The notes beneath the pieces are model-generated. The model searched no databases, was not told the DNA's origin, and worked only from the letters and a program-made list of their open reading frames with translations. From contig JBHGAY010000015.1 of NCBI GenBank assembly GCA_041946735.1, positions 16,170 to 80,169 on the forward strand: a DNA stretch of 64,000 nucleotides, read 5' to 3'. This DNA is from Candidatus Eiseniibacteriota bacterium. GTDB taxonomy: Bacteria; Eisenbacteria; RBG-16-71-46; CAIMUX01; VGJL01. Position numbers and translations under genes: made by a program. This document shows positions 25,795 to 64,000 of the stretch, in pieces; the stretch's first letter is position 1; the number at the start of each line of letters is the position of its first letter.

Positions 25795-26113
25795 GACGGG
25801 CTGCCGGGCCGCCGCTCGGATATGCCCGTCTGACCTTCCGCCCGAACCGCCGCTGCACTGATCGCGCCGTCGATTCGAGGAGTGCCGGCCGCACCCTCCT
25901 CCCCGCGCCTTGCGGCGTCTCTCCCTCCTCCCTGCGCTTCCGACGTCTCTTCCTCATCCGTGTCCCGAATCCGTCCACCGCACATCCGCCGGACGTTCGT
26001 CCCCCAAGCTCGCGAAAGTGATAGAATTCACCGAACGCAAACGCACCCGAGGCCGCTCCGCATCCGGCCTCCTGCGCACCTGCGAGCTTCCACCCTCAGC
26101 CGGGAGGTTCTCG

Positions 26114-35242: not shown

Positions 35243-38200
35243 TCACCGCGACGGACCGCCCGCCTCGACCGACCCCGATCGCGACACCGACCCGGATCGC
35301 GTAGCCGCCCCCGGTGATCGGGAGGCGCCGAGCAGTGCTGCGGCCTCCTCGACGACCGCCGAAGCGCCGCCGCGACGCTCTTCGCCTCCGCCTGCCGCCG
35401 CCGCGGCGGCCGCCCCGCTCCATCGCCGCAGCATCCCCTGGCTGTCCAGGTAGGCCTCGACGCGCGTCAGCATGCCTGCGTCGTTCGCGTGGCCGTCGAA
35501 CTGCAGGGTCAGGAAGGCGCGCCCGAAGGCGTCGCGGACGAAATGCTTGATGTAGGAGTCGGGGCCGCACTTGAAGTTCGTAATGTAAATGAGGTGGAGG
35601 CGCTCGCGGCGCGAGGCGACGATCGCCGCCGCGAGGATCTTCCTTCCATAGGCCCAGTACATGTTCGCATTGACCGCCTCGATGTCGGCGTCGCCGGAGG
35701 CGAGGAACTCGAGCGGCACCACGTTCGCCCCGTAGAGATCGCGGAGCTTGCGCGGCACGTCGAGGTTCACGACGGGGTCGAAGAGGTTGTACGGGCGGCC
35801 GGCCAGAAGGACGGCCGGCTCTCCGCTCGCATCCAGCTCCCGCATCGCCGTCTCGCCCGCCTCTCGAATCCTCCTCCGAAAGAGGGCGAGAGCCTCCTCA
35901 CCCGCGGCCAGGCCCCGCTTCACGGCCCCCTTCCGCACTCCATAGCGCCGGAGGGAATCGTGCAGCGGATCGACCAGCGCCCGCGGGCCGGCCTGGATGC
36001 GGAGTAGCGGGTGGACGATCCGTTTGGCCTGCGCCTCGAACCCGGCCGCCGCGCGCACGACGTAGGGGATCGTCATCCCCCAAGGACAGCAGAAGCTTTC
36101 GATCTCGTCGTGCGTCCGCTCTGTGTTGATCAGGTTCGGCAGGAAGACGAAGTCGGTCTCGGGCATTTCGAGCGCGAGCCGGACGTGGCCGTGGGCGACC
36201 TGGATCGGGAAGCAAGGCTCGGCGACCGCCGCCTCCACTCCATCGTGCGCGATCGATCGGTTCGTCTCCGGCGTCAGGCGGACCCCGAAGCCGGTCTCGC
36301 GCAGGAAGGCGTTCCAGAACGGAAACCGGTCGAAGAAGTAGAGGGAGCGCGGGAAGGCGACCGTGCCGCGTGGGCCGCTACCCGGCTCGTACCCCTCGAG
36401 GAGCCACTCCTTTCGCAACCGCACGAGATCGTCGATGACCGGCTCGTACTGGACCCGCGCCCGGCGCCTGTAGCGATCGCCGCACTGGTCGCCCCAGAAC
36501 GTCTTCTCTCCCTCGACCCGGAACTCCTGCATGTCGCAGCGGTTCTCGCACCCCTGGCACGTGAACTCCCGGATCCGGTAGTCGACGGTGCCGAGGTCCC
36601 ATCCACGGAACCGCGATGGCGCTCCGGAATCCGCGTTCGCCTTCTCCCAGGCGAGCAGGGCCGCGCCCACGGCTCCGACGACTCCGTTGTAGGGAGGGAC
36701 GATGATCTCCCGGTCGAGAATCTGCGCAAAAGCCGCTGCGACGGCGTCGTTGTAGGCCGTCCCCCCTTGGAAGAAGATCACGCCGTCGATCTTGCGGCCG
36801 CGCACGACGCGGTTGATGTAGTTCGTCGCGACCGAGAGAGCGAGTCCGGCCAGCAGATCCTCGGTCGACGCGCCACGCTGCTGGTAGGCGTTGACGTCCC
36901 GTTCCATGAAGACCGTGCAGCGTTCGCCGAGGCGCACGGGGGAGGTCGACGCGAGCGCCCGGCTCGCGAACTCCCCCTTGATGCAGACTCCCAGCTCCTC
37001 CGCCCGCTCCTCGAGGAACGACCCGGTGCCGGCCGCGCACGCTTCGTTCATCGCGAAGTCGACGACGATCCCGTCCTCGATGCGGATGTACTTCGCGTCC
37101 TGCCCGCCGATCTCGAAGATCGTATGGACCGGTGAGCCGAGCATCGTCCGCGCGATGAAGCTCGCGCCGGTCTTGTGAGCGGTGATCTCGTCGTTCACGG
37201 TGTCGGCGCCGACCAGCTCACCGATCAGCTCGCGACCCGAGCCGGTCGTCCCGACGGCCCGCACGGCGATCCGTTTTCCCAGCTCGCCGCGCAGCTCCGC
37301 GAGCGCCGCGGTGACGACCTCGATCGGCCGTCCCTGCGTGCGCGTGTAGATCTCGCGCACGATCTGGCCTTCGCGCGTCAGAAGAACCACGTTCGTGCTG
37401 ACCGACCCGATGTCGATTCCGAGAGCGACCTCGACCGGAGAGCCGTTCCCACTCGACGGCATCTCGTAAGGGAGCACGCGGTCCCGAAGCGCGATGACCT
37501 TGCCGAGGTCGAGCGGGCGGGCGCGCGGCATCGTGTCCGAGCCGAGGGACGCCTCCGACACTCGCTCCAGATCGAGAGGATGGTGCACGGCGTCGCTCGC
37601 TTCGAGGATTGCGCATCCGATCGCGGCATGCGCCGCGTGATGCTCCGGGACGATCAGGTCTTCGTCGAGATCGAAAACGTCGCGCAGCGCGCGCACCACC
37701 ATCCCATTGGCCGCGACCCCGCCGACGAGTAGAACCGGCGGCCGCGGGGTCCGTCCTTTCACTACGGCGGCTCGGAAGTTGCGCGCGACGGTTTCACAAA
37801 GTCCCCGGAGCACCTCCGGGGGCGAGTAGCCTTTCTGCTGCGCGTGGATCATGTCGCTCTTCGCGAAAACGGAGCAGCGCCCGGCGATCTTGGCGGCCCG
37901 CTCGCTCGCGAGCGCGATCGCGCCCAGCTCCTCGACCTCGTAGCGCAGTCGCCCTGCCTGCTGATCGAGGAACGAGCCGGTTCCGGCAGCGCAGTCTCCG
38001 TTGGTTGCGTAATCGGCGATCCCCAGCTCGCCCGATCCTGGGTCCCGCTCGAAGAAGAGCGCCTTCGAGGACTCCCCGCCGATTTCGAAGAGCGTCCGCA
38101 CCTCGGGTGCCAGGGCGCGCGTCGCCGCCGCGAGGCAGCGGAAGTCGTTCTCTTCCGGGATTCCGAAGCGCTCGCGAAGCAGGCGGGCTCCCGAGCCGGT

Positions 38201-38467
38201 CACACGGACCCCGTCGAACGCGCGGCCGCCGGCGCTCTCCCGTATCCGCTCCACGAGGAGCCGGGCGGCCTCGAGCGGACGTCCGTGGGTGCGCCGGTAG
38301 GTGGTGACGCGGAGAGATGCCGGCCCTCCGCCGGGAAGCTCGATATCGAGGAGGTCGGGGGACCAGAGATCCCCCGACGGCTCCTCGCGACGCTCCCGAT
38401 CCTCGCCGATCTTCAGCAGGGCGGCCTTGATGCTGACCGCGCCGATGTCGAGTCCCAAGTACAGCAA
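35243..38467 (-). CDS. CoA-substrate-specific enzyme activase: two tandem BadF/BadG/BcrA/BcrD-type ATPase domains plus a C-terminal DUF2229 domain
   Basis: Two ASKHA ATPase modules, each with LGIDIGxxS...EIGGxxxK...ACAAGTGSF motifs, are followed by about 470 aa of DUF2229 (CPWG, NFKCGPDS). A TTG start is proposed at 38467 with AGGAG 8 nt upstream. The first 45 aa of the track ORF are rejected. Confidence 0.75.
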   Translation of the reverse strand: MLYLGLDIGAVSIKAALLKIGEDRERREEPSGDLWSPDLLDIELPGGGPASLRVTTYRRTHGRPLEAARLLVERIRESAGGRAFDGVRVTGSGARLLRERFGIPEENDFRCLAAATRALAPEVRTLFEIGGESSKALFFERDPGSGELGIADYATNGDCAAGTGSFLDQQAGRLRYEVEELGAIALASERAAKIAGRCSVFAKSDMIHAQQKGYSPPEVLRGLCETVARNFRAAVVKGRTPRPPVLLVGGVAANGMVVRALRDVFDLDEDLIVPEHHAAHAAIGCAILEASDAVHHPLDLERVSEASLGSDTMPRARPLDLGKVIALRDRVLPYEMPSSGNGSPVEVALGIDIGSVSTNVVLLTREGQIVREIYTRTQGRPIEVVTAALAELRGELGKRIAVRAVGTTGSGRELIGELVGADTVNDEITAHKTGASFIARTMLGSPVHTIFEIGGQDAKYIRIEDGIVVDFAMNEACAAGTGSFLEERAEELGVCIKGEFASRALASTSPVRLGERCTVFMERDVNAYQQRGASTEDLLAGLALSVATNYINRVVRGRKIDGVIFFQGGTAYNDAVAAAFAQILDREIIVPPYNGVVGAVGAALLAWEKANADSGAPSRFRGWDLGTVDYRIREFTCQGCENRCDMQEFRVEGEKTFWGDQCGDRYRRRARVQYEPVIDDLVRLRKEWLLEGYEPGSGPRGTVAFPRSLYFFDRFPFWNAFLRETGFGVRLTPETNRSIAHDGVEAAVAEPCFPIQVAHGHVRLALEMPETDFVFLPNLINTERTHDEIESFCCPWGMTIPYVVRAAAGFEAQAKRIVHPLLRIQAGPRALVDPLHDSLRRYGVRKGAVKRGLAAGEEALALFRRRIREAGETAMRELDASGEPAVLLAGRPYNLFDPVVNLDVPRKLRDLYGANVVPLEFLASGDADIEAVNANMYWAYGRKILAAAIVASRRERLHLIYITNFKCGPDSYIKHFVRDAFGRAFLTLQFDGHANDAGMLTRVEAYLDSQGMLRRWSGAAAAAAAGGGEERRGGASAVVEEAAALLGASRSPGAATRSGSVSRSGSVEAGGPSR

Positions 38468-38649
38468 GAGAGGCGCTCCTGAACGGTCTCCCTGCCGCGC
38501 AGGTCGAGACCCGGCCGGTCCATACGAACGAGGGCGGCCAACCGGGGCTGAGAATACGTTCGGCCTGATGCGTTGGCAAGGACGCCCGACCGGTCGCCGC
38601 ATCGCAGCTCCATGCCCGCCGATGCCCGCCGGCGGGCCGTGTCAGGCCC

Positions 38650-43687: not shown

Positions 43688-43844
43688 CCCCGATTGACGC
43701 CCTTCCCCTGGGTTCCCTACTCTCTCCTTCGTTCGCATGCACGGCGCTGCGGCGCCAGGCCGGCTGCCCGCGATTCCTTTGGGGGCCGGGAGGGTCGGGT
43801 TGGAGTCAACCGCTTGCGGCGCAAGCGGTTCGAGGAGGTGGATC

Positions 43845-45026
43845 GTGAAGCGCAACGTCGTGTCGATGCCGGGAGACGGAATCGGGAAGGTCGTCCTCCC
43901 CGAGGCGATCCGAGTCCTGGACGCGGTCGGGTTCGAAGCGAACTACATCCATGGCGATATCGGCTGGGAGTTCTGGTGCAGCGAGGGCAACGCCCTCCCG
44001 GACCGGACCATCTCGCTCCTCGAGGAGCACAAGCTCGGCCTCTTCGGCGCGATCACGTCCAAGCCCAAGGACAAGGCGGAGGCGGATCTCTCGCCAGCGT
44101 TGAAGGGGAAGGGGCACGTCTACTACAGCCCCATCGTCACGATGCGGCAGAAGTTCGATCTCGACATCTGCATCCGCCCCTGCATCGCCTTCGAAGGCAA
44201 CCCGCTGAACTGGATCCGCAAGGACGGTCGCGGGAGCATCGAGGAGCCGAAGGTCGACGTCGTGATCTTCCGGCAGAACACCGAAGGGCTCTATAGCGGC
44301 ATCGAGTGGACGAACCCGCCCGAGAACGTCCGCGCCGCCCTCGCGAGCCATTCGAAGTGGAAGATGTACCAAAAGGTCGCAGGACCGGATCTCGCCGTGT
44401 CGACGCGCGTCATCACGCGCCCAGCCGCCGAAAGGATCTGCCGCAACGCGTTCGAGTACGCGAAGAAGTTCGGCTACAAGTCGGTGACGATCTGTGAGAA
44501 GCCGAACGTCCTTCGTGAAACCTCCGGGATGATGGAGTCCGTGGCGAAGCAGGTGGCGAAGGACTTTCCGGGCATCCCTCTCTGGTCGGTGAACATCGAC
44601 GCGCTCATGATGTGGCTCACGAAGAACCCCGAGGCGTACGGGGTGATCGTGGCGAGCAACATGTTCGGCGACATCATCAGCGACGGCTTCGCGGGATTGG
44701 TCGGCGGGCTCGGGTTCGCATGCAGCGGCAACATCGGCCGCAATTGCGCGGTCTTCGAACCGACCCACGGGTCCGCGCCGAAGTACGAGAAGCTTGATCC
44801 TTCGATCGTCAATCCGATCGCGATGATCCTTTCCGCGGTGATGATGCTCGAGCACGTCGGGGAGACCGCGAAGGCTTCGCGGATCAAGAGCGCGATCGCC
44901 GCAGTGATCCGCGAGGGGAAAGTCCGTACATACGACATGATGCGGCTCACGGGCGGCCCCGACGTGTTCGGGAAGGGCGCCGTGACCACGCAGCAGATGA
45001 CCGACGCAATCCTGGCACATCTCTAG
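43845..45026 (+). CDS. Isocitrate/isopropylmalate dehydrogenase-family beta-decarboxylating dehydrogenase
   Basis: GTG start with GAGGAGG upstream. The N-terminus is MPGDGIGKVV. The signature is NMFGDIISD, and the dimerisation and active-site Asp residues are present. About 393 aa. Confidence 0.75.
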   Translation: MKRNVVSMPGDGIGKVVLPEAIRVLDAVGFEANYIHGDIGWEFWCSEGNALPDRTISLLEEHKLGLFGAITSKPKDKAEADLSPALKGKGHVYYSPIVTMRQKFDLDICIRPCIAFEGNPLNWIRKDGRGSIEEPKVDVVIFRQNTEGLYSGIEWTNPPENVRAALASHSKWKMYQKVAGPDLAVSTRVITRPAAERICRNAFEYAKKFGYKSVTICEKPNVLRETSGMMESVAKQVAKDFPGIPLWSVNIDALMMWLTKNPEAYGVIVASNMFGDIISDGFAGLVGGLGFACSGNIGRNCAVFEPTHGSAPKYEKLDPSIVNPIAMILSAVMMLEHVGETAKASRIKSAIAAVIREGKVRTYDMMRLTGGPDVFGKGAVTTQQMTDAILAHL

Positions 45027-45138
45027 TCCATCGACCGTCTGTCGATCGATCGTCTATTGATCGTCCATCGATCGTCGTCCGTCGTCGTCGGGTCGTCGAC
45101 CGGCCGCTCTCCTCGGCCGGCAATGGGGGAGGTGGAGG

Positions 45139-46356
45139 ATGCCACACGCTGCCGAGGCGGGGCGCCGCGGAGCGGACGTTCGCTCGGACTGCTGGATCTC
45201 GATCACGCCCGAGTCCTCGGGCGGCGCGCGTCTCTCGATCCGGAGCAAGGTCGCTGCGATGTACGGAGGCGCAATCCAGGAGCAGATCGCGTCAGGGCTC
45301 GCGGAGCTTTCCATCCGTGACGCGACGGTCGAGGTCGAGGATGCCGGCGCGCTCCCGTGGGTCATCGCCGCTCGTCTGGAAGCGGCCGCCCGGCGCGCCT
45401 ACGGGCCAGCGCTTGCCGGGCGCCTGCTCCCTCCCGCGAGTCCCGGGGCGAGCGCGACGACGGAGCGGGAGCGCTTCCGGCGCTCGCGCCTCTACCTACC
45501 CGGCAACGAACCGAAGTTCATGGTCAACGCCGGCCTGCACGGCGCCGACGGCATCATCCTCGATCTCGAGGACTCGGTAGCGCCGGCCGAGAAGGACGCG
45601 GCGCGGCTCCTCGTCCGCAACGCGCTCCGGTCGGTCGACTTCGGCGCGTGCGAGCGGATGGTCCGGATCAACCAGCTGCCGATGGGCTTCGACGATCTCG
45701 AGGCGGTGATCCCGGAGAACGTCCACGTCGTCCTGATCCCGAAGTGCGAGTCGGCGCAGCACGTGCACGACGTGGAGGCGAAGATCCGGAGCCTCCGCCG
45801 CTCCGACGATCCGCAGGTCTTCCTGATGCCGATCCTCGAGACGGCGCTCGGAGTCTTGAACGCCTTCGAAATCGCGACGGCGAGCCGGGCGATCGTGGCA
45901 CTGACGATCGGACTGGAGGACTACACGGCGGACATCGGGACCGCGCGCACCGAGCAGGGAGCGGAGTCGCTGTGGGCACGCTCGATGGTGATCAACGCCG
46001 CGCGCGCGGCCGGCGTCGCCCCGATCGACAGCGTCTACTCGGACGTGATGAACACCGAGGGGCTGCGGGCGAGCGTCCTCGAGGCGAAGGCGCTCGGGTT
46101 CGAGGGGAAGGGCTGCATCCATCCCGGGCAGATCCGCGTGATCCACGAGGGGTTTGCCCCTACCGCGGCCGAGATCGAGCGGGCGACGAAGATCGTTCGC
46201 GCGTTCGAGGATGCCGAGGCGAAGGGGCTCGGGGTGGTGTCGCTCGGAAGCAAGATGATCGACGCCCCGGTCGTGAAGAGGGCGAACCGGACGGTTCGCC
46301 TCGCGATCCGCTCGGGGAAGCTCGCGGAGGGCTGGAGGGACGCGCAGCAGGCGTGA
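45139..46356 (+). CDS. Fusion of citrate lyase acyl-carrier subunit (CitD) and citrate lyase beta subunit (CitE, HpcH/HpaI citryl-CoA lyase)
   Basis: The N-terminal 95 aa are CitD-like (RSDCWISI around the prosthetic-group Ser; IAARLEAAARRA). A Pro/Ala linker follows, then CitE (RRSRLYLPGNEPKF...LDLEDSV...PKCES...LETALGV...IGLEDYTADIG). No internal start codon separates the two. The RBS is GGAGGTGGAGG. Confidence 0.7.
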   Translation: MPHAAEAGRRGADVRSDCWISITPESSGGARLSIRSKVAAMYGGAIQEQIASGLAELSIRDATVEVEDAGALPWVIAARLEAAARRAYGPALAGRLLPPASPGASATTERERFRRSRLYLPGNEPKFMVNAGLHGADGIILDLEDSVAPAEKDAARLLVRNALRSVDFGACERMVRINQLPMGFDDLEAVIPENVHVVLIPKCESAQHVHDVEAKIRSLRRSDDPQVFLMPILETALGVLNAFEIATASRAIVALTIGLEDYTADIGTARTEQGAESLWARSMVINAARAAGVAPIDSVYSDVMNTEGLRASVLEAKALGFEGKGCIHPGQIRVIHEGFAPTAAEIERATKIVRAFEDAEAKGLGVVSLGSKMIDAPVVKRANRTVRLAIRSGKLAEGWRDAQQA

Positions 46357-46414
46357 ATCGGCTCGCGGCCGGCTGCCCGCAGGGGGGGAGGGGCCGGAGG
46401 GGGAGAGGGAAGCG

Positions 46415-47974
46415 ATGGCGCAGAAGCTGGTCAAGAATGCGGTAGGTCGGGAAGTCCCGGTCGAGATCAACGGAGAGCCTGCGGTCGCCTACCAGGGGGT
46501 CGGGAAAGACCGGCCGTCCGGACGGCGCGCGGCGCCGCCGATCGCCACCTGCGCGGACTATCCGGCCGACGGGAACAAGATCGTGCCCGATCTGCGCGCG
46601 GCGCTCGAGAAGGCCGGGCTGCGCGACGGGATGACGATTTCGACGCACCACCACTTCCGCAACGGCGACCTGGTCGGGAACCGCGTGTTCGACATCGCGG
46701 CCGAGATGGGCGTGAAAGACCTGCGGTGGTTCCCGAGCGCCTCGTTCCCTTGCCACGCGCCGATGATCCGGCATCTCGAGAGCGGCGTGATCCATCACAT
46801 CGAGGGGTCGATGAACGGTCCGCTCGGCGACTACACCTCGCAGGGGAAGATGCGCGGCATGGCGGTGCTCCGCTCGCACGGCGGCCGCTATCAGGCGATC
46901 CAGGACGGCGAGGTCCATGTCGACATCGCCGTCATCGCGGCGCCGGAGGCCGACCCGTTCGGCAACGCGAACGGCCTCCATGGCCCATCAGCCTGCGGCG
47001 GCCTCGGGTTTGCCGTTGCCGACGCGGAGTACGCCGATCGCGTCGTGGTCGTCACCGACAACCTGGTCCCGTTCCCGTGCGTGCCGTGGCAGATCAGCGG
47101 CAACCGCGTCGACTCGGTCGTCGTCGTCGACCGGATCGGCGACCCGGCGCAGATCGTCTCCGGGACGACGCAGATCACCCGCAGCCCGGACCGGCTGCTG
47201 ATCGCCGAGATGGTCGCCCGCTTCCTGGACGCGTCCGGGATTCTGCGCGATGGCTTCTCCTTCCAGGCAGGGGCCGGCGGGACGGCACTCGCCTTCGCGA
47301 TCTACCTAAAGGAGATGATGAAGGAGCGGGGGATCCGGGCCCGCTTCATCCGGGGAGGCTCGACGAAGTACCTGGTCGAGATGCTCGAGGAGGGGTTGAC
47401 CGATTACATCCTCGACGGGCAGACCTTCGACCTCTTCGGCGTGCGCTCGATGGGGACGAACCCGCGCCACGTGAACACGACGCCGTTCACCTCCTACAAC
47501 TATCACGGCAAGGGGAACTTCGCCTCGATGGTCGACGCGGTCGTGCTCGGAGCGACGGAAGTGGACGTCCACTTCCACGCGAACGTCGTCACCCACTCCG
47601 ATGGCCGCCTGCTCCACGGAATCGGTGGATGGCAGAACTGCCTGTTCTCCGGATGCACGATCCTCGCGCTCCCTTCGTTCCGCGATCGCATCCCGGTGAT
47701 CCTCGATTCCGTGACCACGTTGTGCGGCCCCGGCGAGCTGATCGACGTGATCGTCACGGAGCGCGGGATCGCGATCAATCCGCGCCGGACCGACCTGCTC
47801 GATGCCGTCCGTGGAAGCGATCTCCCGATCCGCATGATCGAGGAGATCCAGGCGGACGTCGACCGGATCTGCGGCGGGCGCCCGACGAAGGCGAGGATGG
47901 GGGAGAAGGTCGTCGCGGCGATCAAGTGGGTCGACGGGACGGTGATCGACTCGGTGAGGCAGGTGCTCGCGTAG
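46415..47974 (+). CDS. citF: Citrate lyase alpha subunit (citrate CoA-transferase, CitF)
   Basis: 519 aa with CitF-family motifs throughout (DGMTISTHHHFRNGD, SMNGPLGDY, GGWQNC). It lies immediately downstream of the citDE fusion. Confidence 0.8.
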   Translation: MAQKLVKNAVGREVPVEINGEPAVAYQGVGKDRPSGRRAAPPIATCADYPADGNKIVPDLRAALEKAGLRDGMTISTHHHFRNGDLVGNRVFDIAAEMGVKDLRWFPSASFPCHAPMIRHLESGVIHHIEGSMNGPLGDYTSQGKMRGMAVLRSHGGRYQAIQDGEVHVDIAVIAAPEADPFGNANGLHGPSACGGLGFAVADAEYADRVVVVTDNLVPFPCVPWQISGNRVDSVVVVDRIGDPAQIVSGTTQITRSPDRLLIAEMVARFLDASGILRDGFSFQAGAGGTALAFAIYLKEMMKERGIRARFIRGGSTKYLVEMLEEGLTDYILDGQTFDLFGVRSMGTNPRHVNTTPFTSYNYHGKGNFASMVDAVVLGATEVDVHFHANVVTHSDGRLLHGIGGWQNCLFSGCTILALPSFRDRIPVILDSVTTLCGPGELIDVIVTERGIAINPRRTDLLDAVRGSDLPIRMIEEIQADVDRICGGRPTKARMGEKVVAAIKWVDGTVIDSVRQVLA

Positions 47975-51468: not shown

Positions 51469-51873
51469 ATGTACACAGTCACACGGAAGCACTCCTTTTC
51501 CTACGGCCACCGCCTGCGCGAACACCCGGGCAACTGCTCGCGCTTGCACGGGCACAATGGTGTCCTCTTCGTCACGGTCGGCTCCGACGCGCTCGACGGC
51601 GGCGGGATGGTCGTCGACTTCCACGAGATCAAGCGAACGGTCGCGCGATGGGTCGACGACACGCTCGACCATCGCCTCGTACTGCAGCGTGGCGATCCGG
51701 CGGCTGCTCTTCTCCAGGAGGCTGGCGAGGAGATCCGGGTGGTCGACTTCGAACCCACCGCGGAGAACCTGGCCCGTCACGTCTACGAGGCTCTGACGGC
51801 GCTCGGCCTGCCGGTCCGCGAGATCGTGTTCGAGGAGACGGAGAACTGCCGCGCCTGCTACCGCCCGGGCTGA
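51469..51873 (+). CDS. queD: 6-carboxy-5,6,7,8-tetrahydropterin synthase (QueD / PTPS family)
   Basis: MYTVTRKHSFSYGHRL...CSRLHGHN carries the Zn-binding and catalytic motifs. GGGAGGG is the RBS. Confidence 0.8.
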   Translation: MYTVTRKHSFSYGHRLREHPGNCSRLHGHNGVLFVTVGSDALDGGGMVVDFHEIKRTVARWVDDTLDHRLVLQRGDPAAALLQEAGEEIRVVDFEPTAENLARHVYEALTALGLPVREIVFEETENCRACYRPG

Positions 51874-53348
51874 GCCGACCCGGCCGCGGCCGGCGGAGGT
51901 GCGGCGCGCAAGGCGGGGATGCGGGAGGCGAACCAACCGGCGCCGACCAGGCAAGCGATGCCGCCGAGCCGGACCGACCAGGGCGCGCCGAAGTGCTGCG
52001 CGACGAACCCCGCGAGGAACGAGCCGATCGGAGCGACGCCGACCAGCGTGAAGCTGTAGATGCTCAGCACCCGCCCGCGGATGGCGTCGGGACTGACCCG
52101 CTGCAGGTAAGTGTTGGTCGTGGCGAGCTGCGTGATCATCGCGCCGCCGGTCAAGACCAGGATCACCAGACTGAGCGCGAAGACCCGGGAGAAGGAGAGC
52201 AGGATCAGGCTCGTCCCGAACAGGCCGAGGCCGATCGTGATCAGCCGGGCCGACCCGCGCGTGCTGCTGCGCGCCGCGAGGCGCAGGGCGCTCGTCACCG
52301 CTCCCACTCCGAAGGCGCCCATCAGCAGCCCATAGCCTCTCGCACCCTGGTGGAGGATCTCGTCTGCGAAGACCGGAAGCAGGATGGTGAACGACATTCC
52401 GAAGATGCTGCTGATCGCGACGGCGAGGAGAACGGCGCGGACGCGGACCGTCCGCAAGACGAACGAGAATCCCTCGCTCAGCTCGTGAAGGACGGGCCGG
52501 TGGGGACGTGCCCGCGGCTTCTCGAGCCGCATAGCGAGCAGGCCCGCGATCACGGGGAGGAAGGAAAGGCCGTTGACCAGGAAGCAGACCGCCTCGCCGG
52601 TCGCCGCGATCACGAGCCCCGCGACTGCGGGCCCGACCACGCGGGCGGCGTTGAAGACCGAGGAGTTGAGAGCGATGGCGTTGAAGAGGTCGTCCTCCCC
52701 GACCATCTCGATCACGAACGCTTGGCGGGCTGGCATGTCGAAGGCATTGACGATCCCCAGGCAGAAGGCGATGACCGCGACGTGATAGACGGTCACCACA
52801 TCGGAGAAGGTGAGAGCTGAAAGGACGAGCGCCAGCGTCATCGCGGAGAACTGCGTGGCGACGAGCAGCCGGCGTTTCGGCACCCGGTCCGCGACGACCC
52901 CAGCCAAGAACGAGAAGAGGAAGACCGGCAGGAACGCGGCGGCGCCGACGATTCCTAGCCAGATCGGCTCGCTCGTCAGGCGATGGACGAGCCACCACTG
53001 GGCGGCCCCCTGCATCCATGTGCCGATCAGGGAAATGAGCTGCCCGAACCAGAAGAGGCGGAAATTGCGGTGGCGGAGCGCCCGGAACGTCGCGCGTGCG
53101 CCGGCCAGGAGCGGGCGCGGCGGCTCGGGCGTCGGAGCCGGAGCGGAAATCGGATTCGCCGGCGCGACCGCCGGCATGCGGACCGACCGTGAGACGTCGG
53201 CAGCCGAGTGCGAAGACGGCGACGGCGACGGTGATGGCGATGGCGAGGGTGACTGCAACGGTGACGGGGAGGGTGATGGCGACGGCGAGGTGCGGCCCGG
53301 CGCTTCGTTCCGTTCCCCGCCCCGCTGTCCCTTCCCGCCGTCCACCAT
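51858..53348 (-). CDS. MFS transporter (enterobactin-exporter EntS-like family) with a Ser-Pro repeat N-terminal extension; start uncertain between 53177 and 53372
   Basis: 12 TM helices with MFS motifs. GGGGAGG lies 10 nt before the ATG at 53348. If that start is used, the N-terminal tail contains (SP)n. It converges on queD and overlaps it by 16 bp. Confidence 0.7.
   Translation of the reverse strand: MVDGGKGQRGGERNEAPGRTSPSPSPSPSPLQSPSPSPSPSPSPSSHSAADVSRSVRMPAVAPANPISAPAPTPEPPRPLLAGARATFRALRHRNFRLFWFGQLISLIGTWMQGAAQWWLVHRLTSEPIWLGIVGAAAFLPVFLFSFLAGVVADRVPKRRLLVATQFSAMTLALVLSALTFSDVVTVYHVAVIAFCLGIVNAFDMPARQAFVIEMVGEDDLFNAIALNSSVFNAARVVGPAVAGLVIAATGEAVCFLVNGLSFLPVIAGLLAMRLEKPRARPHRPVLHELSEGFSFVLRTVRVRAVLLAVAISSIFGMSFTILLPVFADEILHQGARGYGLLMGAFGVGAVTSALRLAARSSTRGSARLITIGLGLFGTSLILLSFSRVFALSLVILVLTGGAMITQLATTNTYLQRVSPDAIRGRVLSIYSFTLVGVAPIGSFLAGFVAQHFGAPWSVRLGGIACLVGAGWFASRIPALRAAPPPAAAGSAQPGR
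53214..53289. repeat. Hexanucleotide microsatellite (GAYGGY)n of about 13 units, which encodes the (SP)n tract on the minus strand
   Basis: gacggcgacggcgacggtgatggcgatggcgagggtgactgcaacggtgacggggagggtgatggcgacggcgag seen directly. Confidence 0.7.
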
Positions 53349-53517
53349 GTTGTCCGCCGCCTCCCCACGCATGATGGGTGCATTGTAGCGGCATGGCCGG
53401 CGTCGATGGAGCGGCGAAGCAGTCGGATCCTGGGGCGGAGGAGGCGGATCCGCAGGCGGATCTGCTGGGGCGCCGGCGCAGGTGGGGAGAGGCGAGCGAC
53501 GGCTCCGGGAAGGGGGT

Positions 53518-54771
53518 ATGCTCGCCGCGGCGAGCACGAGGGAGGAAGGGAACGTGGAGCGTCGGACGCGGGATTCCGAGGCGGGGGGCGGGGACGTCCG
53601 CCTGCAGGATGAGCAGATCGATCTCTCGACCCGAGAGGCGAGCGACGAGCAAGGCGGAGTTCGCGAGTTCCGGCGCCGCTTGCTCGCCTTCGGCTTCGGG
53701 ATCGTGACCCTCTCGATCATCGCGCTGCTCGTCGCGATCTACCTTCAGCTCATCTACCAGCTCCTCTGGGGCGTGGCATTGGCCATCCTCTTCTATCCCC
53801 TGCATCGCAAGATCCTCCGGCTCGTGCACGGGAGGACTTCCCTGGCCGCGACGATCAGCACCGCGCTGTCGATCGCGATCGTGATCGTTCCGGCGGCGCT
53901 GCTCGTCTTCAACCTCGTCGCGGAAGTCCAGGACCTCTGGCCGCGGATCGAGAACGTCGTTGGCGACAACGCCTACCAGCAGGTTTCGGAATGGCTGGAG
54001 GACTCTCCGCTGCGCTCCGTGGTCCATTGGGCGCTCGGGCCCCAGGCGGGGACCGGCCCCGAAGTGCTCGAGGAAGAAGTGCGCAAGGCGGCGCTCTCGC
54101 TGCAGGTGTTCCTGCTCGAGCAACTGCGAAAGATCACGCGCTCCGTCCCGGCGTTTCTGATCAAGCTCGGCATCACTCTCGTCACCTTCTTCTTCTTCCT
54201 CAAGAACGGGCCGGGATGGTCGAAGCAGGCGCAGCGGGGGCTGCCGCTCGCCCAGGAGCACTCCGCGCGCCTCTTCCGGATCGCCGAGCAGACGATCAAC
54301 GCCGTGTTCCGCGGAGTCGTCCTTACGGCGGCGACGCAGGCGGCGCTTGGCGGGCTCGGCTACTGGGTCGCGGGGGCGGAGGTGCCGATCCTCCTCGCCC
54401 TGGTCACCTTCATCGCCGCTCTGATCCCGTTCGTCGGTCCGGTCTTCGTCTGGCTCCCCGTCTCGATCGGGCTGCTCCTGACCGGCAAGACCTGGGCCGC
54501 GATCGGGCTCGCGGTCTGGGGAACGTGCGTCGTCAGCCTCGTCGACAACGTCCTGCGACCCTGGCTGATCGGCCGCGAGATCCAGCTGCCCTTGCTCTGG
54601 CTCTTCCTGGCGATCGTCGGCGGGCTCAAGCTCTTCGGATTCCTGGGCGTGCTCGTCGGGCCCGCCGCTCTCTCGCTCGCCGTCGCCTGCTTCCGGATCT
54701 ACATGGAAGCGCGGCGCGAAGACCACCACGAGGAGCGCCAGCCGGCAGAGGAGAACCCCGCTGCCCCGTGA
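53518..54771 (+). CDS. AI-2E family transporter (PerM/YhhT-like)
   Basis: RBS GAAGGGGG. Eight TM helices and the conserved VDNVLRPWLIG motif. Confidence 0.8.
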   Translation: MLAAASTREEGNVERRTRDSEAGGGDVRLQDEQIDLSTREASDEQGGVREFRRRLLAFGFGIVTLSIIALLVAIYLQLIYQLLWGVALAILFYPLHRKILRLVHGRTSLAATISTALSIAIVIVPAALLVFNLVAEVQDLWPRIENVVGDNAYQQVSEWLEDSPLRSVVHWALGPQAGTGPEVLEEEVRKAALSLQVFLLEQLRKITRSVPAFLIKLGITLVTFFFFLKNGPGWSKQAQRGLPLAQEHSARLFRIAEQTINAVFRGVVLTAATQAALGGLGYWVAGAEVPILLALVTFIAALIPFVGPVFVWLPVSIGLLLTGKTWAAIGLAVWGTCVVSLVDNVLRPWLIGREIQLPLLWLFLAIVGGLKLFGFLGVLVGPAALSLAVACFRIYMEARREDHHEERQPAEENPAAP

Positions 54772-58735: not shown

Positions 58736-59986
58736 TTACCTCTGCGCCATCGGAATGTACGGCGACGAGATCGGTCCCACGTACACCGCCCGCGGCCGGA
58801 AGATGCGGTTGTCCTGCAAGTACTCGAGCGACCGCGCGGTCCATCCCGCGACTCGGCTCACCGCGAAGATCGGGGTGAACATGGCGGTCTCGATCTCCAT
58901 CGCTCGATAGATCAATCCGGAATAGAAGTCCACGTTCGGGAAGATCTTCTTCTCGCCGAGCTGGCCGCAGAGGAGGGAGTCGAGCTTCTCGGCGACCTGA
59001 TAGAGGCGCTTCACCTCCGGATTGCGGTCGGCGAGCAGCCGGGCGATCGGACCGAAGATCCGGGCGCGTGGATCGTACGCCTTGTAGACGCGGTGCCCGA
59101 ATCCCATGACGCGCCGCTTCGACTCCATCGCCTTGCGGAACCAGGGTTCCACGTTCTCCGGAGTCCCGATCTCCTCGAGATCGTAGAGAACCCGTTCGTT
59201 CGCGCCGCCGTGGAGTGGGCCCTTCAGGCTCGCGATCCCTGCCACGACGCTCCCGTACATGTCGGAGAGCGAGGAGTTCACGACCATCGTCGCGAAGGTC
59301 GAGGCGTTCATCCCGTGGTCCGCGTGAAGGATCAGGGAGATGTCCATCGTCCTCTCGATGACCGGATCGGGCTTCTGCCCGGTCATCATCCACAGCAGGT
59401 TGCCGGCGTGGCTCAGGGTCGGATCGGGCGGGAGCGGCTCCTTCCCTTTGCGGATGCGGGCGATCGCGCCGGTGATCGTCGCGAGTTGCGCGATCATCCG
59501 GATCGCGATCTGCTGCTCGTATTCGACCGACGTGTCGTCCGCGCGTGGGTCGAGGTTGCCTTCGACGGAGGCGCAGGTGCGCAGCGTGGACATCGGGTGG
59601 GCCTTGGCGGTCGGCACGATCTCGAGAATCTTCTTCGCCTCGGGCGCCATCGGCGCCGCCGCCCGGATCTTGGCGACGAAGCCGTCGAGCTCCACCTTCG
59701 TCGGAAGGTGGCCGTACAGGAGCAGGAAGGCGGTCTCCTCGTAGGTGGAGTATTCCGCGAGGTCGAAGATGTTGATGCCCCGATAGACGAGCCATCCCTT
59801 CGCCCCGTTGACGTAGCCGACCTCGGTGTCGCAAGCCGGCGCCCCCTCGAGCCCCTTGCCGATCTTCGCGTCGATCGGCCATTCGTGAGCGCCGGTGCGC
59901 TGCGGCTCGGGCTCGTCGCTCGTCTCCTGGAGCGCCTTCTCCTTCGCCGCCCTCACCAGTTCCTGAAGGTCATGCGTGCTCGTCAT
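58736..59986 (-). CDS. gltA: Citrate synthase
   Basis: 416 aa starting MTSTHDLQELV with GAGGAAGGA as the RBS. The signature is GFGHRVYKAYDPRA, and the catalytic His/Asp context is present. The upstream part of the track ORF is rejected. Confidence 0.85.
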   Translation of the reverse strand: MTSTHDLQELVRAAKEKALQETSDEPEPQRTGAHEWPIDAKIGKGLEGAPACDTEVGYVNGAKGWLVYRGINIFDLAEYSTYEETAFLLLYGHLPTKVELDGFVAKIRAAAPMAPEAKKILEIVPTAKAHPMSTLRTCASVEGNLDPRADDTSVEYEQQIAIRMIAQLATITGAIARIRKGKEPLPPDPTLSHAGNLLWMMTGQKPDPVIERTMDISLILHADHGMNASTFATMVVNSSLSDMYGSVVAGIASLKGPLHGGANERVLYDLEEIGTPENVEPWFRKAMESKRRVMGFGHRVYKAYDPRARIFGPIARLLADRNPEVKRLYQVAEKLDSLLCGQLGEKKIFPNVDFYSGLIYRAMEIETAMFTPIFAVSRVAGWTARSLEYLQDNRIFRPRAVYVGPISSPYIPMAQR

Positions 59987-60114
59987 CGGGTCCTTCCTCG
60001 CAACGGGCGGCGCGCGCCGCCCGGCATCAGGGTCTTTCGGCCGACTCCTACGAACGGGAGGATCACCTATACTCCGCTCCTGGGTAGTGCCGCGACCCCG
60101 AGGACGGAGGACCA

Positions 60115-63100
60115 TTGGAGAAGCCGCCGACACCGACCGTCGCCCACCAGGTGACGGATGCGGCTCGGGACCTGGCCCATGCCTTTCGGGACACCGCCAG
60201 TCGCAACCGAACGCTCGAGGATACCATTCCGGAACGCGTGATCGCAGCCGTCGTGGAGACGGCCTCGGCGCATGCGCGGCTGCCGTCCGGGGCCGAGGAG
60301 GCGGAAGTTCGCAGCCTCCTGCTCGACCTCCTCGAGGCCGGCCGCACCCCAGCCTTTCTCCGCCGGATCGCCGGCACCCCGCTCGCCGACCGCTGGCTCG
60401 AAGCGGTGCTCGGCGCCCTCGACGCGGCCGCCATCTCCCTCGGGGATCTCCTGCAGCAGCGGGCGGCCCGGACGCCCGACCGCACCTGGATCCGGGTGCC
60501 GCGCGCCAACGGTTGGGACGACGTGACCTGGGGGGAGGCCGAGGAGCGCGTCGCCGCGATCGCCCGCGGCCTGCGCGAGGAGCTGCCCGAACGGCCGGGC
60601 GCGGTCCATGTCGCAATCCTCGCCCCGAACCGCCTGGAGACGATCCTCGCCGACGTGGCCTGCCTGACGCACGGAATCGTCGACGTGCCGATCTCGTCGG
60701 ACTCCACGCCCGATCAGGTGCGCTTCATCCTCGAGCAGACCGCCCCTCCGATCCTCCTCGTGTCCGATCGAGCGCGGCTCGATGCGGTGCTTTCGGCCGG
60801 ACCGCTGCCGGCGGTGCGGACCGTCCTCTTGATGGACGAGCCGGAGGGGGACCCTCCGGTGGAGCATTGGCTGCTGCTCCGCGAGATCGAGGAGCGGGGA
60901 AGGAGCCTGGGGAGGCTTCCGCTCCCCCGGATCGCGCCGCGCGCCCTCGCCACGCTGCTCTATACCTCCGGCACGACCGGGCAGCCGAAGGGCATCCGCT
61001 TCTCGCAGCGCAACATCGTCTACAAGCGCTTCTGCAGGGCGGTCGCGATTCCGGAGATCGGCGAGGACGACACCTTCCTTTGCTACCTGCCGCTGTTCCA
61101 CACATTCGGCCGATGGCTCGAGATGACCGGGACGCTCTTCTGGGGAGCGACCTACGCGATGATGGAGAATCCGTCGGTCGAGACAATGCTGGCGCGGATG
61201 GCGCTCGCGCGCCCGACCGTCTTCATCTCGATCCCGAAGCGCTGGATCCAGCTTCACGAGCGGATCATCCAAGTCGCGGGCGGCACGATGGAGGAACGCG
61301 AGGAGATTCCCGCGGCGCGCCTGGACGACGCCACCGAGGCTGTCACCGGCGGCCGCCTCCGGTGGGGGCTATCGGCCGCCGGACATCTCGACACGGAGGT
61401 CTTCCTCTTCTTCCAGAAGCGGGGGATCGAGCTTCTGAGCGGCTTCGGGATGACCGAGGCGACCGGGGGAATCACGATGACCCCTCCGGGGCAGTATCGC
61501 CGCGGCACCGTCGGAAAGGCCCTCCCGGGAATCGAGGTGCGGCGAGCGGAGGACGGCGAGCTGCTCGTGCGGGGTCCCTACCTGATGCTCGGCTACAACG
61601 ACCCGGACGCCGGAGATCGCGACTACGAGGCGGATTGGTTCGCGACCGGCGACATCGTGCGCGAGGACGAAGACGGCTATTACACGATCGTCGACCGCAA
61701 GAAGGACATCTACAAGAACGTCAAGGGACAGACGATCGCGCCGCAGAGGATCGAGAACCTTTTCGATGAGTTCGAGGAGGTGAAGCGCAGCTTCCTGGTC
61801 GGCGACGGGCGGGAGTACAACACGCTCCTGCTCTATCCGGACTACGAGGCGGCCGGCGGCAAGCTGAAGCGCATGAGCGCGGAGGATCTGCGGGAGTACC
61901 TCTCCTCCTTCGTCGTCTCCGTCAATCGCTTCCTCGCCCCGTACGAGCGCGTGGTTGCCTTCGACCTCCTCCCCCGCTACTTCCGCGAGGACCGCGGCGA
62001 GCTGACACCGAAAGGGACGTTCGTCCGGAAGGTCGTCGAGAAGAGCTTCTCCGAGCTGATCGAGTCGCTCTACGCGCGGCCGTACGTGACCGTGACGACG
62101 CAGGGGATCGACGTGCGCGTGCCGAGCTGGCTGCTTCGCGAGAAGGGCCTCACGCCGGATTCGGTCAGCGCGGAACCGGGCGGGATTCGCCTGCGCCCGG
62201 GCGGAGAGCGGCTGACCATCGCGCGCATTCCCGGCGCTCCGGGGCGCTATCGCGTCGGGACCTTCACCTACCGGATGGAGAGCGAGGAGCGCGCGGCGGC
62301 GCCGCTCGCCGCTCCGCTCGTCGACCTCGACCGCATCCTGGCGATCGCCTCGCTCTGGGCCGGCAACCTCGAGCTGTCCCGCTTCGTCGGGGAAGGAAGG
62401 CCGAGGCGGCCGCGCACGGCGCAAGGCGGCGGCCCGCGGATCTCGATCGAGGGATGGCACCGGCCGACCCTCCTGGTCGACTTCGCGCGCGAGACGCTGG
62501 GGCGCGCCCGCGCGAAGGGAGCCACCGGGGCTGCCCTCGTCCACGCGCTGGCCGGCGCGCTGTTCGCGACGCAGGGCTCGGACGCGCTCGATGCGCTCGC
62601 CTCCTTGCGCAAGCTCCTGCAGGATCCCGCGGCAGAGGAGGCTGCGCTCGCCCGCGCGATCCTCCCGTTGCTTCGGACCCATCCGGATGCGGCCGTCCGC
62701 TCGGCGGCTCTCGCGATCCTGCTGCCCGGCGAGGTGGACGAGCGCGCCGCCGAGACGCTCGCGAGCTTCCTCGAAGTCGATGCGGACGTCTTCTCGCCCG
62801 AAGTGCGCGCGCGCGCGCTCGAGCACGAGATCACTCCGGCCGCCCTGCGATCGATCCTCCGCCTCGGCGCGTCCCTCGAAGTCCCGGCCGGACAGCCTTG
62901 GGCGGCCGGCCCCGCCCGGCGCCGGATCGAGTCCATCCTTCGCTTCTGTGTGGAGACGGCCGAGCAGTTGCCTCGCTGGTATGCGATCGTCCGACAGCTC
63001 CTGGCGGGCCGCTCCATGCAGGAGCGCGACGCGGACGTCCGCGCGCTCGCCCTCTCGCTGCGCGAGCGGCTCGACGAGCGTTTCCGGTCCTGGATCGAGT

Positions 63101-64000
63101 GGGGACGAACGAGCCCGACCGATCCGGAGACCGGCAAGCCGATCGGCTGGGATCGCGTCCTCGGCTTCGACGAGCGAGTGGAACCCGAGGTGCGGGAGCG
63201 CCTCCGCGACGCGCTCGCCGAGACCACCCTTCTGCGCGAGTCGATCTTCCTGCTCGCGGACGGAACGCTCCTCTCCGGCGGCGATCTCCTTCCGGGGGGG
63301 ATTTGGGTGAGCCACCTCGGAGCCGGCCACGGAAAGACGGTCGTCCGTCTCATCGTGTCGACGCGAGGCGGCCGGACGCACGAGTTCGTCGTCAAGATCC
63401 TGCGCGAGATCCGACCCGAGGAGGCGCGCGAGGAAGCGGACTGGCTGATCCGGCTCGGCTCGTTCGATCGAGCCGTCCGGCTCGTCGCCGATTTCGGAGG
63501 CTATTGGCCGGAGCGCGGGATCTGGTCCGAGGAGTACATCAGCGGCGAGACGGTGCGGAACAACCTCACGCGGATCGCGGCGCATCCTGACGAGGAGCGG
63601 CGGCAACGCCTGTCGAGCAGCTGGCCGCACGTCGCCTGGTCGGCCCTGGCGACGTTCGTCGAGTTCTGGCAGCGGACGGGGCGCAAGCTGATCCTTGCCG
63701 AGCCGACGCCGGAGAACATCGTCGTCGCCCCGCACGACTACCAGGAAGGCTCGCGCCTCGTCTCGATCACCTCCCGCCTGCCGTTCCAGGGGATCGCGTC
63801 GATGCTGCGCCGCCAGCACGAGACGTTCCTCGATCCGGTGCATGCGCAGTTCCCGGAGCTCGCCTCGGGGGCGCCGCGCCGCACGAGCTTTTCCGCCTTC
63901 CTGGAAGCGGTCGGGGAGACGACCGGCTTGGCGCTGCTCTGGCGCGCGCTTGGCGAGATGAAGGAGAAGCTGCTCGCCGGAGACCCGTCCTGGCAGCCCT
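60115..64000 (+). CDS. Long-chain acyl-CoA synthetase-like protein (AMP-binding) with an open C-terminal extension of 690 aa or more; it runs off the window end
   Basis: The frame (mod 1) differs from the track ORF 59976..61769, which is rejected. A TTG start lies at 60115 with GGAGG upstream. The AMP-binding motif is LLYTSGTTGQPKG at about 60958. Motifs YGMTEATGG and GDIVREDEDGYYTIVDRKKD follow. There is no stop codon before 64000. The sequence after residue about 600 is Ala/Leu/Arg-rich and helical with no recognised family. Confidence 0.7.
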   Translation, partial: MEKPPTPTVAHQVTDAARDLAHAFRDTASRNRTLEDTIPERVIAAVVETASAHARLPSGAEEAEVRSLLLDLLEAGRTPAFLRRIAGTPLADRWLEAVLGALDAAAISLGDLLQQRAARTPDRTWIRVPRANGWDDVTWGEAEERVAAIARGLREELPERPGAVHVAILAPNRLETILADVACLTHGIVDVPISSDSTPDQVRFILEQTAPPILLVSDRARLDAVLSAGPLPAVRTVLLMDEPEGDPPVEHWLLLREIEERGRSLGRLPLPRIAPRALATLLYTSGTTGQPKGIRFSQRNIVYKRFCRAVAIPEIGEDDTFLCYLPLFHTFGRWLEMTGTLFWGATYAMMENPSVETMLARMALARPTVFISIPKRWIQLHERIIQVAGGTMEEREEIPAARLDDATEAVTGGRLRWGLSAAGHLDTEVFLFFQKRGIELLSGFGMTEATGGITMTPPGQYRRGTVGKALPGIEVRRAEDGELLVRGPYLMLGYNDPDAGDRDYEADWFATGDIVREDEDGYYTIVDRKKDIYKNVKGQTIAPQRIENLFDEFEEVKRSFLVGDGREYNTLLLYPDYEAAGGKLKRMSAEDLREYLSSFVVSVNRFLAPYERVVAFDLLPRYFREDRGELTPKGTFVRKVVEKSFSELIESLYARPYVTVTTQGIDVRVPSWLLREKGLTPDSVSAEPGGIRLRPGGERLTIARIPGAPGRYRVGTFTYRMESEERAAAPLAAPLVDLDRILAIASLWAGNLELSRFVGEGRPRRPRTAQGGGPRISIEGWHRPTLLVDFARETLGRARAKGATGAALVHALAGALFATQGSDALDALASLRKLLQDPAAEEAALARAILPLLRTHPDAAVRSAALAILLPGEVDERAAETLASFLEVDADVFSPEVRARALEHEITPAALRSILRLGASLEVPAGQPWAAGPARRRIESILRFCVETAEQLPRWYAIVRQLLAGRSMQERDADVRALALSLRERLDERFRSWIEWGRTSPTDPETGKPIGWDRVLGFDERVEPEVRERLRDALAETTLLRESIFLLADGTLLSGGDLLPGGIWVSHLGAGHGKTVVRLIVSTRGGRTHEFVVKILREIRPEEAREEADWLIRLGSFDRAVRLVADFGGYWPERGIWSEEYISGETVRNNLTRIAAHPDEERRQRLSSSWPHVAWSALATFVEFWQRTGRKLILAEPTPENIVVAPHDYQEGSRLVSITSRLPFQGIASMLRRQHETFLDPVHAQFPELASGAPRRTSFSAFLEAVGETTGLALLWRALGEMKEKLLAGDPSWQP

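Follow-up and report, generated by a model that had tools for sequence, protein, structure and literature searches.

A giant bacterial protein joining an AMP-forming synthetase module to a kinase-like and a GNAT domain, encoded beside citrate synthase

Background

The known lysine acetyltransferases of bacteria fall into five architectural types, in none of which a kinase-like domain or a working AMP-forming synthetase is present, and the Pat type is defined by a domain of 700-900 amino acids (aa), homologous to nucleoside diphosphate (NDP)-forming acyl-CoA synthetases, fused to a GNAT domain (2024 review, PMC11254643). The protein described here is encoded by a gene that starts at position 60115 on the plus strand of a 64,000-nucleotide (nt) stretch of DNA from Candidatus Eiseniibacteriota bacterium (hereafter referred to as the window) and continues past its end. 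In this giant protein of 1,587 aa, a variable N-terminus, an adenylation module of the ANL superfamily, a beta-domain, helical repeats, a protein-kinase-like (PKL) domain, a helical bundle and a GNAT domain follow one another in a single chain. The architecture is new and belongs to no known family beyond its individual domains, the protein being a multidomain variant of the GNAT acyltransferases and the ANL enzymes; literature searches found no description of a synthetase - kinase-like - GNAT arrangement.

In Pat (PatZ, YfiQ) the N-terminal module is an inactive homologue of an NDP-forming synthetase, whereas the module of the giant protein is an AMP-forming ANL domain with conserved core motifs. 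Pat also lacks the kinase-like domain, the beta-domain and the helical repeats, all three of which are present here, and no NDP-forming synthetase domain of Pfam was found in the completed protein or in six homologues, which places them outside the Pat type. The combination of the two chemistries in one chain is known from Drosophila Ebony, where an acid is activated by an ANL adenylation domain and joined to an amine, as an amide, by a GNAT-fold domain at the C-terminus (PMC10510592). Ebony, with an adenylation domain feeding a GNAT-fold domain in one polypeptide, is the clearest precedent for the acyl relay proposed below. However, it passes the acyl group through a covalent phosphopantetheine carrier domain, which is absent from the family described here, and it is eukaryotic and has no kinase-like domain, whereas the giant protein is bacterial and has one.

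The likeness to FadD11/ACSL enzymes and to the adenylation domains (A-domains) of carboxylic acid reductases (CARs) covers the first 655 aa (AMP-binding and AMP-binding_C_3), FadD11 being the best NCBIfam match. Ordinary FadD/ACSL proteins end at about 600 aa, and CARs continue into carrier and reductase domains, neither of which the giant protein has. AceK is a bacterial kinase-fold regulator of one enzyme of the tricarboxylic acid (TCA) cycle, isocitrate dehydrogenase, and is encoded beside the genes of that branch. It offers a conceptual precedent for a kinase-like protein beside citrate synthase, but differs in its target, isocitrate dehydrogenase, and in having neither a synthetase nor a GNAT domain. 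AAC(6')-Ie/APH(2'')-Ia, a resistance enzyme of mobile elements, holds a GNAT acetyltransferase and a kinase-like phosphotransferase for the same substrate in one chain. Compared with the giant protein its domain order is reversed, it is much smaller and it lacks an adenylation domain, and the fold matches gave no specific similarity between the two beyond fold class.

Methods

The neighbouring citrate synthase gene was used as an exact-sequence query, which returned three public contigs. One of these, L001, is a 7,057-nt Logan assembly of SRR29307520 that aligns to the window when reverse-complemented.

An exhaustive HMMER search was performed with aa 661-1295 of the giant protein as the query, and the matches are counted as clusters at 50% identity. 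Homology searches of the word-indexed kind returned nothing, despite the existing homologues, whether the query was the extension alone or an alignment of 13 sequences; Ala/Leu/Arg-rich words probably saturate the 8,000-candidate list of such a search. The less repetitive C-terminus, used in the same way, returned only generically named fragments.

The counts of lineages and of neighbouring genes cover the best 80 loci, in which all open reading frames (ORFs) within 7 kb of the family gene were clustered. Conservation of the kinase and GNAT sites was counted in 75 species. The structure of the C-terminal part was modelled on the top HMMER match, P0001 (1,588 aa; 47% identical over the extension), for which the equivalent 593 aa and a 90-row alignment were used.

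Results and discussion

A single gene of 1,587 codons

The plus-strand frame from TTG 60115 stays open to base 64000, which amounts to 1,295 codons without a stop. Given an in-frame TAG at 60085, this TTG is the first possible start, and a Shine-Dalgarno-like GGAGG, read off the sequence at 60106..60110 (plus strand), stands 4 nt before it. The overlap between contig L001 and the window measures 6,086 nt and contains 0 mismatches, and the contig reaches 971 nt beyond the window end. It completes the gene at a TAG stop in the window-equivalent positions 64876-64878, 878 nt past the window, and ends 93 nt after this stop. The segment 60115-64000 is the first 1,295 codons of one real gene of 1,587 codons, and the extension past the synthetase measures about 930 aa, of which about 640 lie inside the window.

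GC at codon positions 1, 2 and 3 of the gene is 0.71, 0.50 and 0.89 overall, and the third-position value (GC3) remains at 0.83-0.93 in each 300-nt block from 60115 to 63714. As GC3 is uniformly high across the frame, there is no frameshift near 61900 or elsewhere, and a frameshift or a misassembly is ruled out by GC3, the identical independent contig and the collinearity of the gene across its family. Local GC is 65-75% (about 70%) and long ORFs arise there in several frames. Two of them overlap the gene, one of 597 aa on the plus strand (59976-61769; third-position GC 0.50) and one of 824 aa on the minus strand (61369-63843; 0.71). Since their GC-rich position is codon position 1, their third-position GC is low and their composition is rich in Arg, Gly, Ala and Pro, both are high-GC shadow ORFs. 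The giant ORF itself is absent from the ORF list made for the window because the list omits ORFs that run off the sequence end. The first-pass annotation of this DNA had proposed the continuous frame from TTG 60115 to the window end with its GGAGG ribosome-binding site, a protein longer than 1295 aa with an extension of at least 690 aa, and an artefactual origin for the two listed ORFs, all of which the completed gene bears out; the region near 61900, where it had considered a frameshift or stop, is uniform in GC3 and identical in L001.

An adenylation domain with conserved core motifs

The first ~110 aa (60115..60444, plus strand), which precede the Pfam AMP-binding match, have no domain match of their own and are variable, with a median identity to family members of 0.17. 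The N-terminal subdomain of an ANL adenylation domain follows at aa 113-494 (60451..61596, plus strand; PF00501, E 8e-65). The match covers the full model with 219.5 bits against a cutoff of 29.9 and assigns the protein to the ANL superfamily. The mobile C-terminal subdomain, AMP-binding_C_3, lies at aa 536-655 (61720..62079, plus strand; PF23562, E 2e-11, 44.8 bits against a cutoff of 20.8), and its A10-region motif reads GELTPKGTFVRK.

The ANL motifs A3 (TSGTTGQPKG), A4 (FHTFG) and A5 (GFGMTEATGG) were identified, as were LLYTSGTTGQPKG, GDIVR...DRKKD and ALVHALAGALFATQGSDALDALASLRKLLQDP; the last three had been named correctly beforehand, while A5 had been misread as YGMTEATGG. Motifs A3, A4, A5, A7 (TGD) and A8 (DRxKD) are near-invariant in 67 diverse family members, among which the synthetase is the best-conserved region of the protein. 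The A10 region of the family reads GELTPKG[TS][YF][RK]RK, with K633 present in 66 and R638 in all 67 members; alignment to CAR puts the canonical A10 Lys opposite T635 and not K633. Judged by these motifs, the adenylation domain is predicted to be catalytically intact and of the AMP-forming ANL acyl-CoA-synthetase type.

The closest solved relative of the synthetase is a CAR A-domain, which aligns from end to end (E 6e-29). The earlier description of the enzyme as FadD-like is right as far as the AMP-forming ANL domain is concerned and fails for a specific FadD equivalog, as every NCBIfam model of long-chain-fatty-acid--CoA ligases scores far under its curated cutoff (FadD11, the best, 198.6 against 950 bits; PRK06187, 194 against 476 bits). 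Neither a PP-binding nor any other carrier domain was found in the full-length protein (Pfam, E<=1) or in six homologues. The suggested check for a phosphopantetheine site thus gave no hit, and a carrier-protein, nonribosomal peptide synthetase-like or CAR-type reading is ruled out, there being no PP-binding domain after the adenylation domain.

The beta-domain and the helical repeats

Besides AMP-binding, AMP-binding_C_3 and Acetyltransf_1, Pfam gives nothing significant on the completed protein, and aa 661-1295 have no NCBIfam match. An AlphaFold2 model of this segment (predicted local distance difference test, pLDDT, 84.6; predicted template-modelling score, pTM, 0.79) is laid out as a beta-rich part (~661-780), alpha-helical repeats (~784-995) and an alpha/beta domain (~1040-1290). 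The conserved beta-rich domain (62095..62454, plus strand), delimited by the strands of the model, carries the motif DL..x..P.LW.GN..L..F, and its residues W672, G715, Y719, W748 and N751 are invariant in 46 species. Profile searches against PDB sequences gave no significant match for this domain or for the second helical region (best MJ0781, E 0.028).

The alpha-helical repeat region (62464..63099, plus strand; model helices H124-H334) is modelled as stacked helical hairpins and, with a median identity of 0.20, is the least conserved part after the N-terminus. No HEAT/ARM profile matches the giant protein, and in one homologue HEAT_2 reaches 21.4 bits, under the cutoff of 27.7. A pure HEAT/ARM module is ruled out, as the helical repeats of the model span only ~210 aa. 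The first-pass annotation is partly supported: the synthetase is indeed fused to a large extension, and the HEAT/ARM-like character proposed for the latter fits the hairpins at aa ~784-995 and not the remainder, which comprises the beta-domain, the kinase-like domain, the helical bundle and the GNAT domain. Its remark that the extension holds no recognisable domain is true of aa 661-1295 as far as Pfam is concerned. It does not hold for the structure model, which shows a kinase-like fold, nor for the completed protein, where a scan of residues 600 onward matches, beyond the synthetase C-terminal subdomain, only Acetyltransf_1, past the window.

The kinase-like domain

The alpha/beta domain of the model, aa ~1040-1290 (63232..63984, plus strand), has the bilobal kinase fold of the PKL superfamily, together with a glycine-rich loop (G-loop) LG..HGK.V.R, an alphaC Glu1107, an E/D-P-x-P-x-N loop and an HDY motif (D1208). 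No Pfam, NCBIfam, PDB sequence or profile match to kinase families (Pkinase, APH, RIO1, ABC1 etc.) was obtained; the domain is highly divergent and undetected by sequence methods. The site residues, assigned from the sequence and the secondary structure of the model without superposition, are well conserved in several positions. Glu1107, the DFG-like Asp1208 and Arg1078 are found in all 75 species, and the G-loop Lys1074, an alternative to the beta3 Lys, in 74. Position 1201 is Asn in 66 and Asp in 8, while the acidic loop position 1196 is Asp in 61 and Glu in 9, the giant protein having Glu. The beta3 "Lys" position 1094 is Lys in the giant protein and Asn in 72 of the 75. This pattern of conservation fits a nucleotide-binding, possibly catalytic, site of unusual layout.

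The identity of the domain to Bud32/PRPK, to the RIO atypical kinases and to APH/NahK-type kinases is 8-16%. Compared with known kinases, it has a conserved Lys in the glycine-rich loop and usually Asn at beta3. A Lys in the glycine-rich loop resembles the arrangement in WNK kinases. Its position between helical modules, packed against the GNAT domain, also sets it apart from Bud32, RIO, APH and NahK.

The GNAT domain and the C-terminal unit

Past the window end, aa 1480-1570 of the completed protein match Acetyltransf_1 with 35.4 bits against a cutoff of 20.7, and the same match is present in 6/6 homologues. The acyl-CoA-binding motif A (Q/R-x-x-G-x-G/A) is conserved, with R/Q1531 in 71 and Gly1534 in 72 of the 75 species. 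The fold, the Pfam match and motif A together assign the domain to the GNAT superfamily. His1520 (74/75) aligns with the position of the catalytic glutamate of tGCN5, and an acidic residue, Glu/Asp1522 (75/75), stands two residues on along the same strand. The model of the C-terminal part of P0001 (pLDDT 95.2, pTM 0.91) shows the kinase-like domain, the helical bundle and the GNAT domain as one compact unit, and the three are predicted to form one rigid body.

Distribution of the family

At E<=1e-3 the HMMER search returned 224 clusters, of which 68 reach E<=1e-30. Most matches are 1,500-1,710 aa long with the aligned region at the same position, and the six members scanned all show the layout synthetase - unassigned region - GNAT. 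Relatives were found in 185 of 185,579 species genomes, and the architecture is collinear in these 185 and in 66 full-length representatives; the family shows a fixed domain order under purifying selection. The fusion, noted as unusual at first, was not met with in the literature searches, and it recurs across these clusters and genomes.

The family occurs mostly in Acidobacteriota and in phyla of the FCB group. The best 80 loci comprise 39 from Acidobacteriota (Thermoanaerobaculia, Holophagae, Vicinamibacterales), 11 from Calditrichota including the cultured Caldithrix abyssi (L071), 8 from Gemmatimonadota and 6 from Ignavibacteria/Bacteroidota, the remainder including Cytophagia, KSB1, Marinimicrobia, Eisenbacteria, Methylomirabilota and Myxococcota. 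Length and architecture are constant from 38% GC (L008) and 46% GC (L010) to the ~70% GC of the window. Two members, L033 and L034, come from separate contigs of the Acidobacteriota metagenome-assembled genome (MAG) CAVQJV01, which suggests either that one genome carries paralogues or that the bin mixes strains.

Family matches of 850-1,250 aa start within the synthetase C-terminal subdomain and are fragments. The short match P0128 is interrupted by a 100-N scaffold gap, and P0198, which lies 16 bp after a 1,229-aa AMP-binding piece on an error-rich contig where other genes are also fragmented, is split by a frameshift. A separately encoded extension in relatives, which had been named as a finding that would speak against the fusion, is thus ruled out. 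The shorter matches being fragments, gap-cut or frameshift-split, fusion is the native state of the family. Members are named in the databases "long-chain acyl-CoA synthetase", "GNAT family N-acetyltransferase" or "hypothetical protein", and both of the specific names miss most of the protein.

Association with citrate synthase

Upstream of the giant gene, 128 bp from its start and divergently oriented, lies a gene for a citrate synthase of 416 aa (58736..59986, minus strand; PF00285, E 7e-125). It is of the TIGR01800 type, at 437 bits against a cutoff of 421. Citrate synthase is the sole neighbour conserved across many lineages and phyla. It is found within 7 kb of the family gene at 26 of the 80 loci, and within 3 kb at 18 of the 53 whose flanks extend 3 kb or more in both directions; the distance is mostly less than 500 bp. 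By a rough estimate, chance would place a given single-copy gene within a few kb in well under 1% of genomes. The arrangement varies: the gene is upstream on the same strand in Ignavibacteria and Anaeromyxobacteraceae, downstream in same-strand or convergent orientation in Gemmatimonadota, KSB1, Cytophagia and a "Deltaproteobacteria" MAG, and upstream and divergent in the window, L004 and Eisenbacteria. The enzymes also belong to two non-orthologous types, namely the TIGR01800 type in the window, L077, L006 and L055 (and in L004, placed there by its N-terminal sequence) and the PRK09569/eukaryote-like (Si)-synthase in L082, L018, L070, L009 and L083. This variation in arrangement, together with the occurrence of two enzyme types, speaks for functional coupling rather than for inherited synteny alone.

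The TIGR01800-type neighbours in the window (58736-59986, minus strand), L004 (5519-6766), L055 (10979-12277) and L077 (11752-12999) have in common ~40 additional N-terminal aa with the motif ..AKEKA..ET.DEPEP.., which is rich in lysine and acidic residues; the Pfam domain begins at about residue 45.

Other recurrent neighbours, among them an alpha/beta hydrolase, a NapC/NirT cytochrome, a response regulator and a membrane protein, are confined or nearly confined to Acidobacteriota and are ruled out as family-wide partners, and neighbour clusters 6 and 15 are shadow ORFs of citrate synthase. The alpha/beta hydrolase is conserved upstream at 19 Acidobacteriota loci. The predicted membrane protein, of ~297 aa, matches no Pfam family and begins only a few bases from the family stop codon, often with an overlap of ~4 nt, which suggests translational coupling. 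It was observed at L014, L021, L025, L028, L032-L034, L041-L043, L049, L058 and L059 (at locus coordinates of ~11.6-12.5 kb for most), from Thermoanaerobaculia, Holophagae and Sulfomarinibacteraceae of the Acidobacteriota.

A proposed acyl relay and its alternatives

An acyl relay, with a kinase-like domain that gates it or phosphorylates its target and with a function at the acetyl-CoA/citrate entry of the TCA cycle, where citrate synthase is the leading candidate for a target or partner, is put forward here as a plausible but tentative reading. The adenylation domain would use ATP to convert a carboxylic acid into its CoA thioester. The acid is probably a fatty or other non-acetyl acid, which is suggested by the presence of a dedicated donor-making domain although acetyl-CoA is abundant in cells; the nearest relatives of the synthetase are long-chain and CAR-type enzymes. 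The fused GNAT domain would take up the acyl-CoA so made and N-acylate an amine, most likely a protein lysine or N-terminus. A GCN5-like profile and fold matches rich in protein acetyltransferases favour such a protein acceptor. With no carrier domain present, free CoA would serve as the acyl carrier, and the kinase-like domain would bind ATP and either gate the transfer by nucleotide status or phosphorylate the same target. The function is placed at the acetyl-CoA/citrate entry because the gene repeatedly adjoins citrate synthases of two unrelated types in several orientations. Such a relay appears the simplest way to link both chemistries.

Several observations weigh against this proposal. 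Citrate synthase is not nearby at two thirds of the loci, among them all those of Calditrichota and most of those of Acidobacteriota, which makes the association facultative, and common ancestry within the FCB group may account for part of it. The beta3 Lys is replaced by Asn in most members (72/75) and the more distant ones lose the acidic residue, usually Asp, of the catalytic loop, so that the kinase-like domain may be a mere nucleotide binder or a pseudokinase. GNAT folds, finally, are too similar for structure matches to tell protein acceptors from small-molecule ones.

The protein might instead be a self-regulating acyl-CoA synthetase, in which the GNAT domain acylates the catalytic lysine of its own chain or oligomer as an off-switch and the kinase-like domain senses nucleotides or energy charge. 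Pat, AcuA and MtPat switch off separate AMP-forming synthetases by acylation. This explanation is considered unlikely, as the A10 sequence GELTPKG[TS][YF][RK]RK does not fit the PX4GK motif of Pat-type substrates, a spacer of 800 aa is large for a simple on/off switch, and the beta-domain, the helical repeats and the recurrent citrate synthase neighbour are left unexplained. A role in small-molecule biosynthesis is doubtful on present evidence. The synthetase would activate an acid, the GNAT domain would N-acylate a small amine such as an amino acid, a polyamine, an amino sugar or a lipid head group, and the kinase-like domain would phosphorylate a small molecule. The kinase-like domain does resemble APH, NahK, homoserine kinase and MTR kinase; the evidence favouring a protein acceptor stands on the other side. 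A chimeric or misassembled ORF, or adjacent genes read through in stop-poor high-GC DNA, might be thought of in a region of ~70% GC with long spurious ORFs in its other frames, but this is effectively refuted by the uniform GC3 signature in one frame, the identical contig from an independent run, the high-confidence structure model that bridges the domain junctions and the collinear architecture of the 66 representatives and 185 genomes, those of 38-46% GC ruling out high-GC read-through.

Other features of the window

A citrate/TCA-related gene run lies on the plus strand 12-16 kb upstream of the giant gene (43698-47974) and comprises an isocitrate/isopropylmalate dehydrogenase (43698-45026), a citrate-lyase-beta/HpcH-like protein with a fused N-terminal acyl carrier protein (MdcD/CitD-like) domain (45139-46356) and a CitF-like citrate lyase alpha subunit (46415-47974). 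Together with the citrate synthase at 58.7 kb, these genes make this part of the window rich in citrate metabolism. Because citrate lyase ligase activates acetate and has a GNAT-like part, a link between the giant gene and the citrate lyase genes 12 kb upstream was considered; it was dropped, as citrate lyase is not among the neighbour clusters that recur in related loci.

A polysaccharide/O-antigen-type cluster (8773-18059) encodes a MurJ-like flippase, a Wzy_C ligase/polymerase, a Wzz/GNVR chain-length determinant, a GT4 glycosyltransferase and an asparagine synthase homologue. An ORF of ~1,219 aa (25862-29521, plus strand) combines Peptidase_C10 (streptopain-like), right-handed beta-helix repeats and a C-terminal FlgD Ig-like domain, and is probably a secreted or surface protease. 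Another of ~1,132 aa (35243-38641, minus strand) has a BcrAD/BadFG-type ATPase region in two stretches and DUF2229, an architecture known as 'CoA enzyme activase'. The Pfam match of an MFS_3 'transmembrane secretion effector' transporter (51858-53720, minus strand) begins at residue 211, which points to ~210 additional N-terminal aa or, in this high-GC DNA, to a start that was called too far upstream.

Conclusion

Most studies of how protein modification controls the entry of carbon into the TCA cycle concern a few model bacteria. The family described here combines in a single polypeptide a predicted donor-making enzyme, a kinase fold with a putative nucleotide site and a GCN5-like transferase, and it is spread over phyla that are abundant in soil and sediment and in which few regulators have been characterised. 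If the acyl relay is true, the availability of free acids would be linked directly to protein acylation, and the kinase-like superfamily would gain a new member family that sequence methods do not detect. The most specific form of the proposal is speculative and, taken as a whole, improbable. The family would be a hitherto unrecognised class of bacterial metabolic regulator: a protein acyltransferase, possibly with kinase activity as well, that senses carboxylates, is gated by ATP and produces the acyl-CoA it draws on. It would modify citrate synthase or another enzyme of the acetyl-CoA node and so set TCA carbon entry by fatty or organic acid supply and energy charge. In that case citrate synthase would have its own counterpart of AceK, and the bacterial lysine acyltransferases a sixth architectural type.

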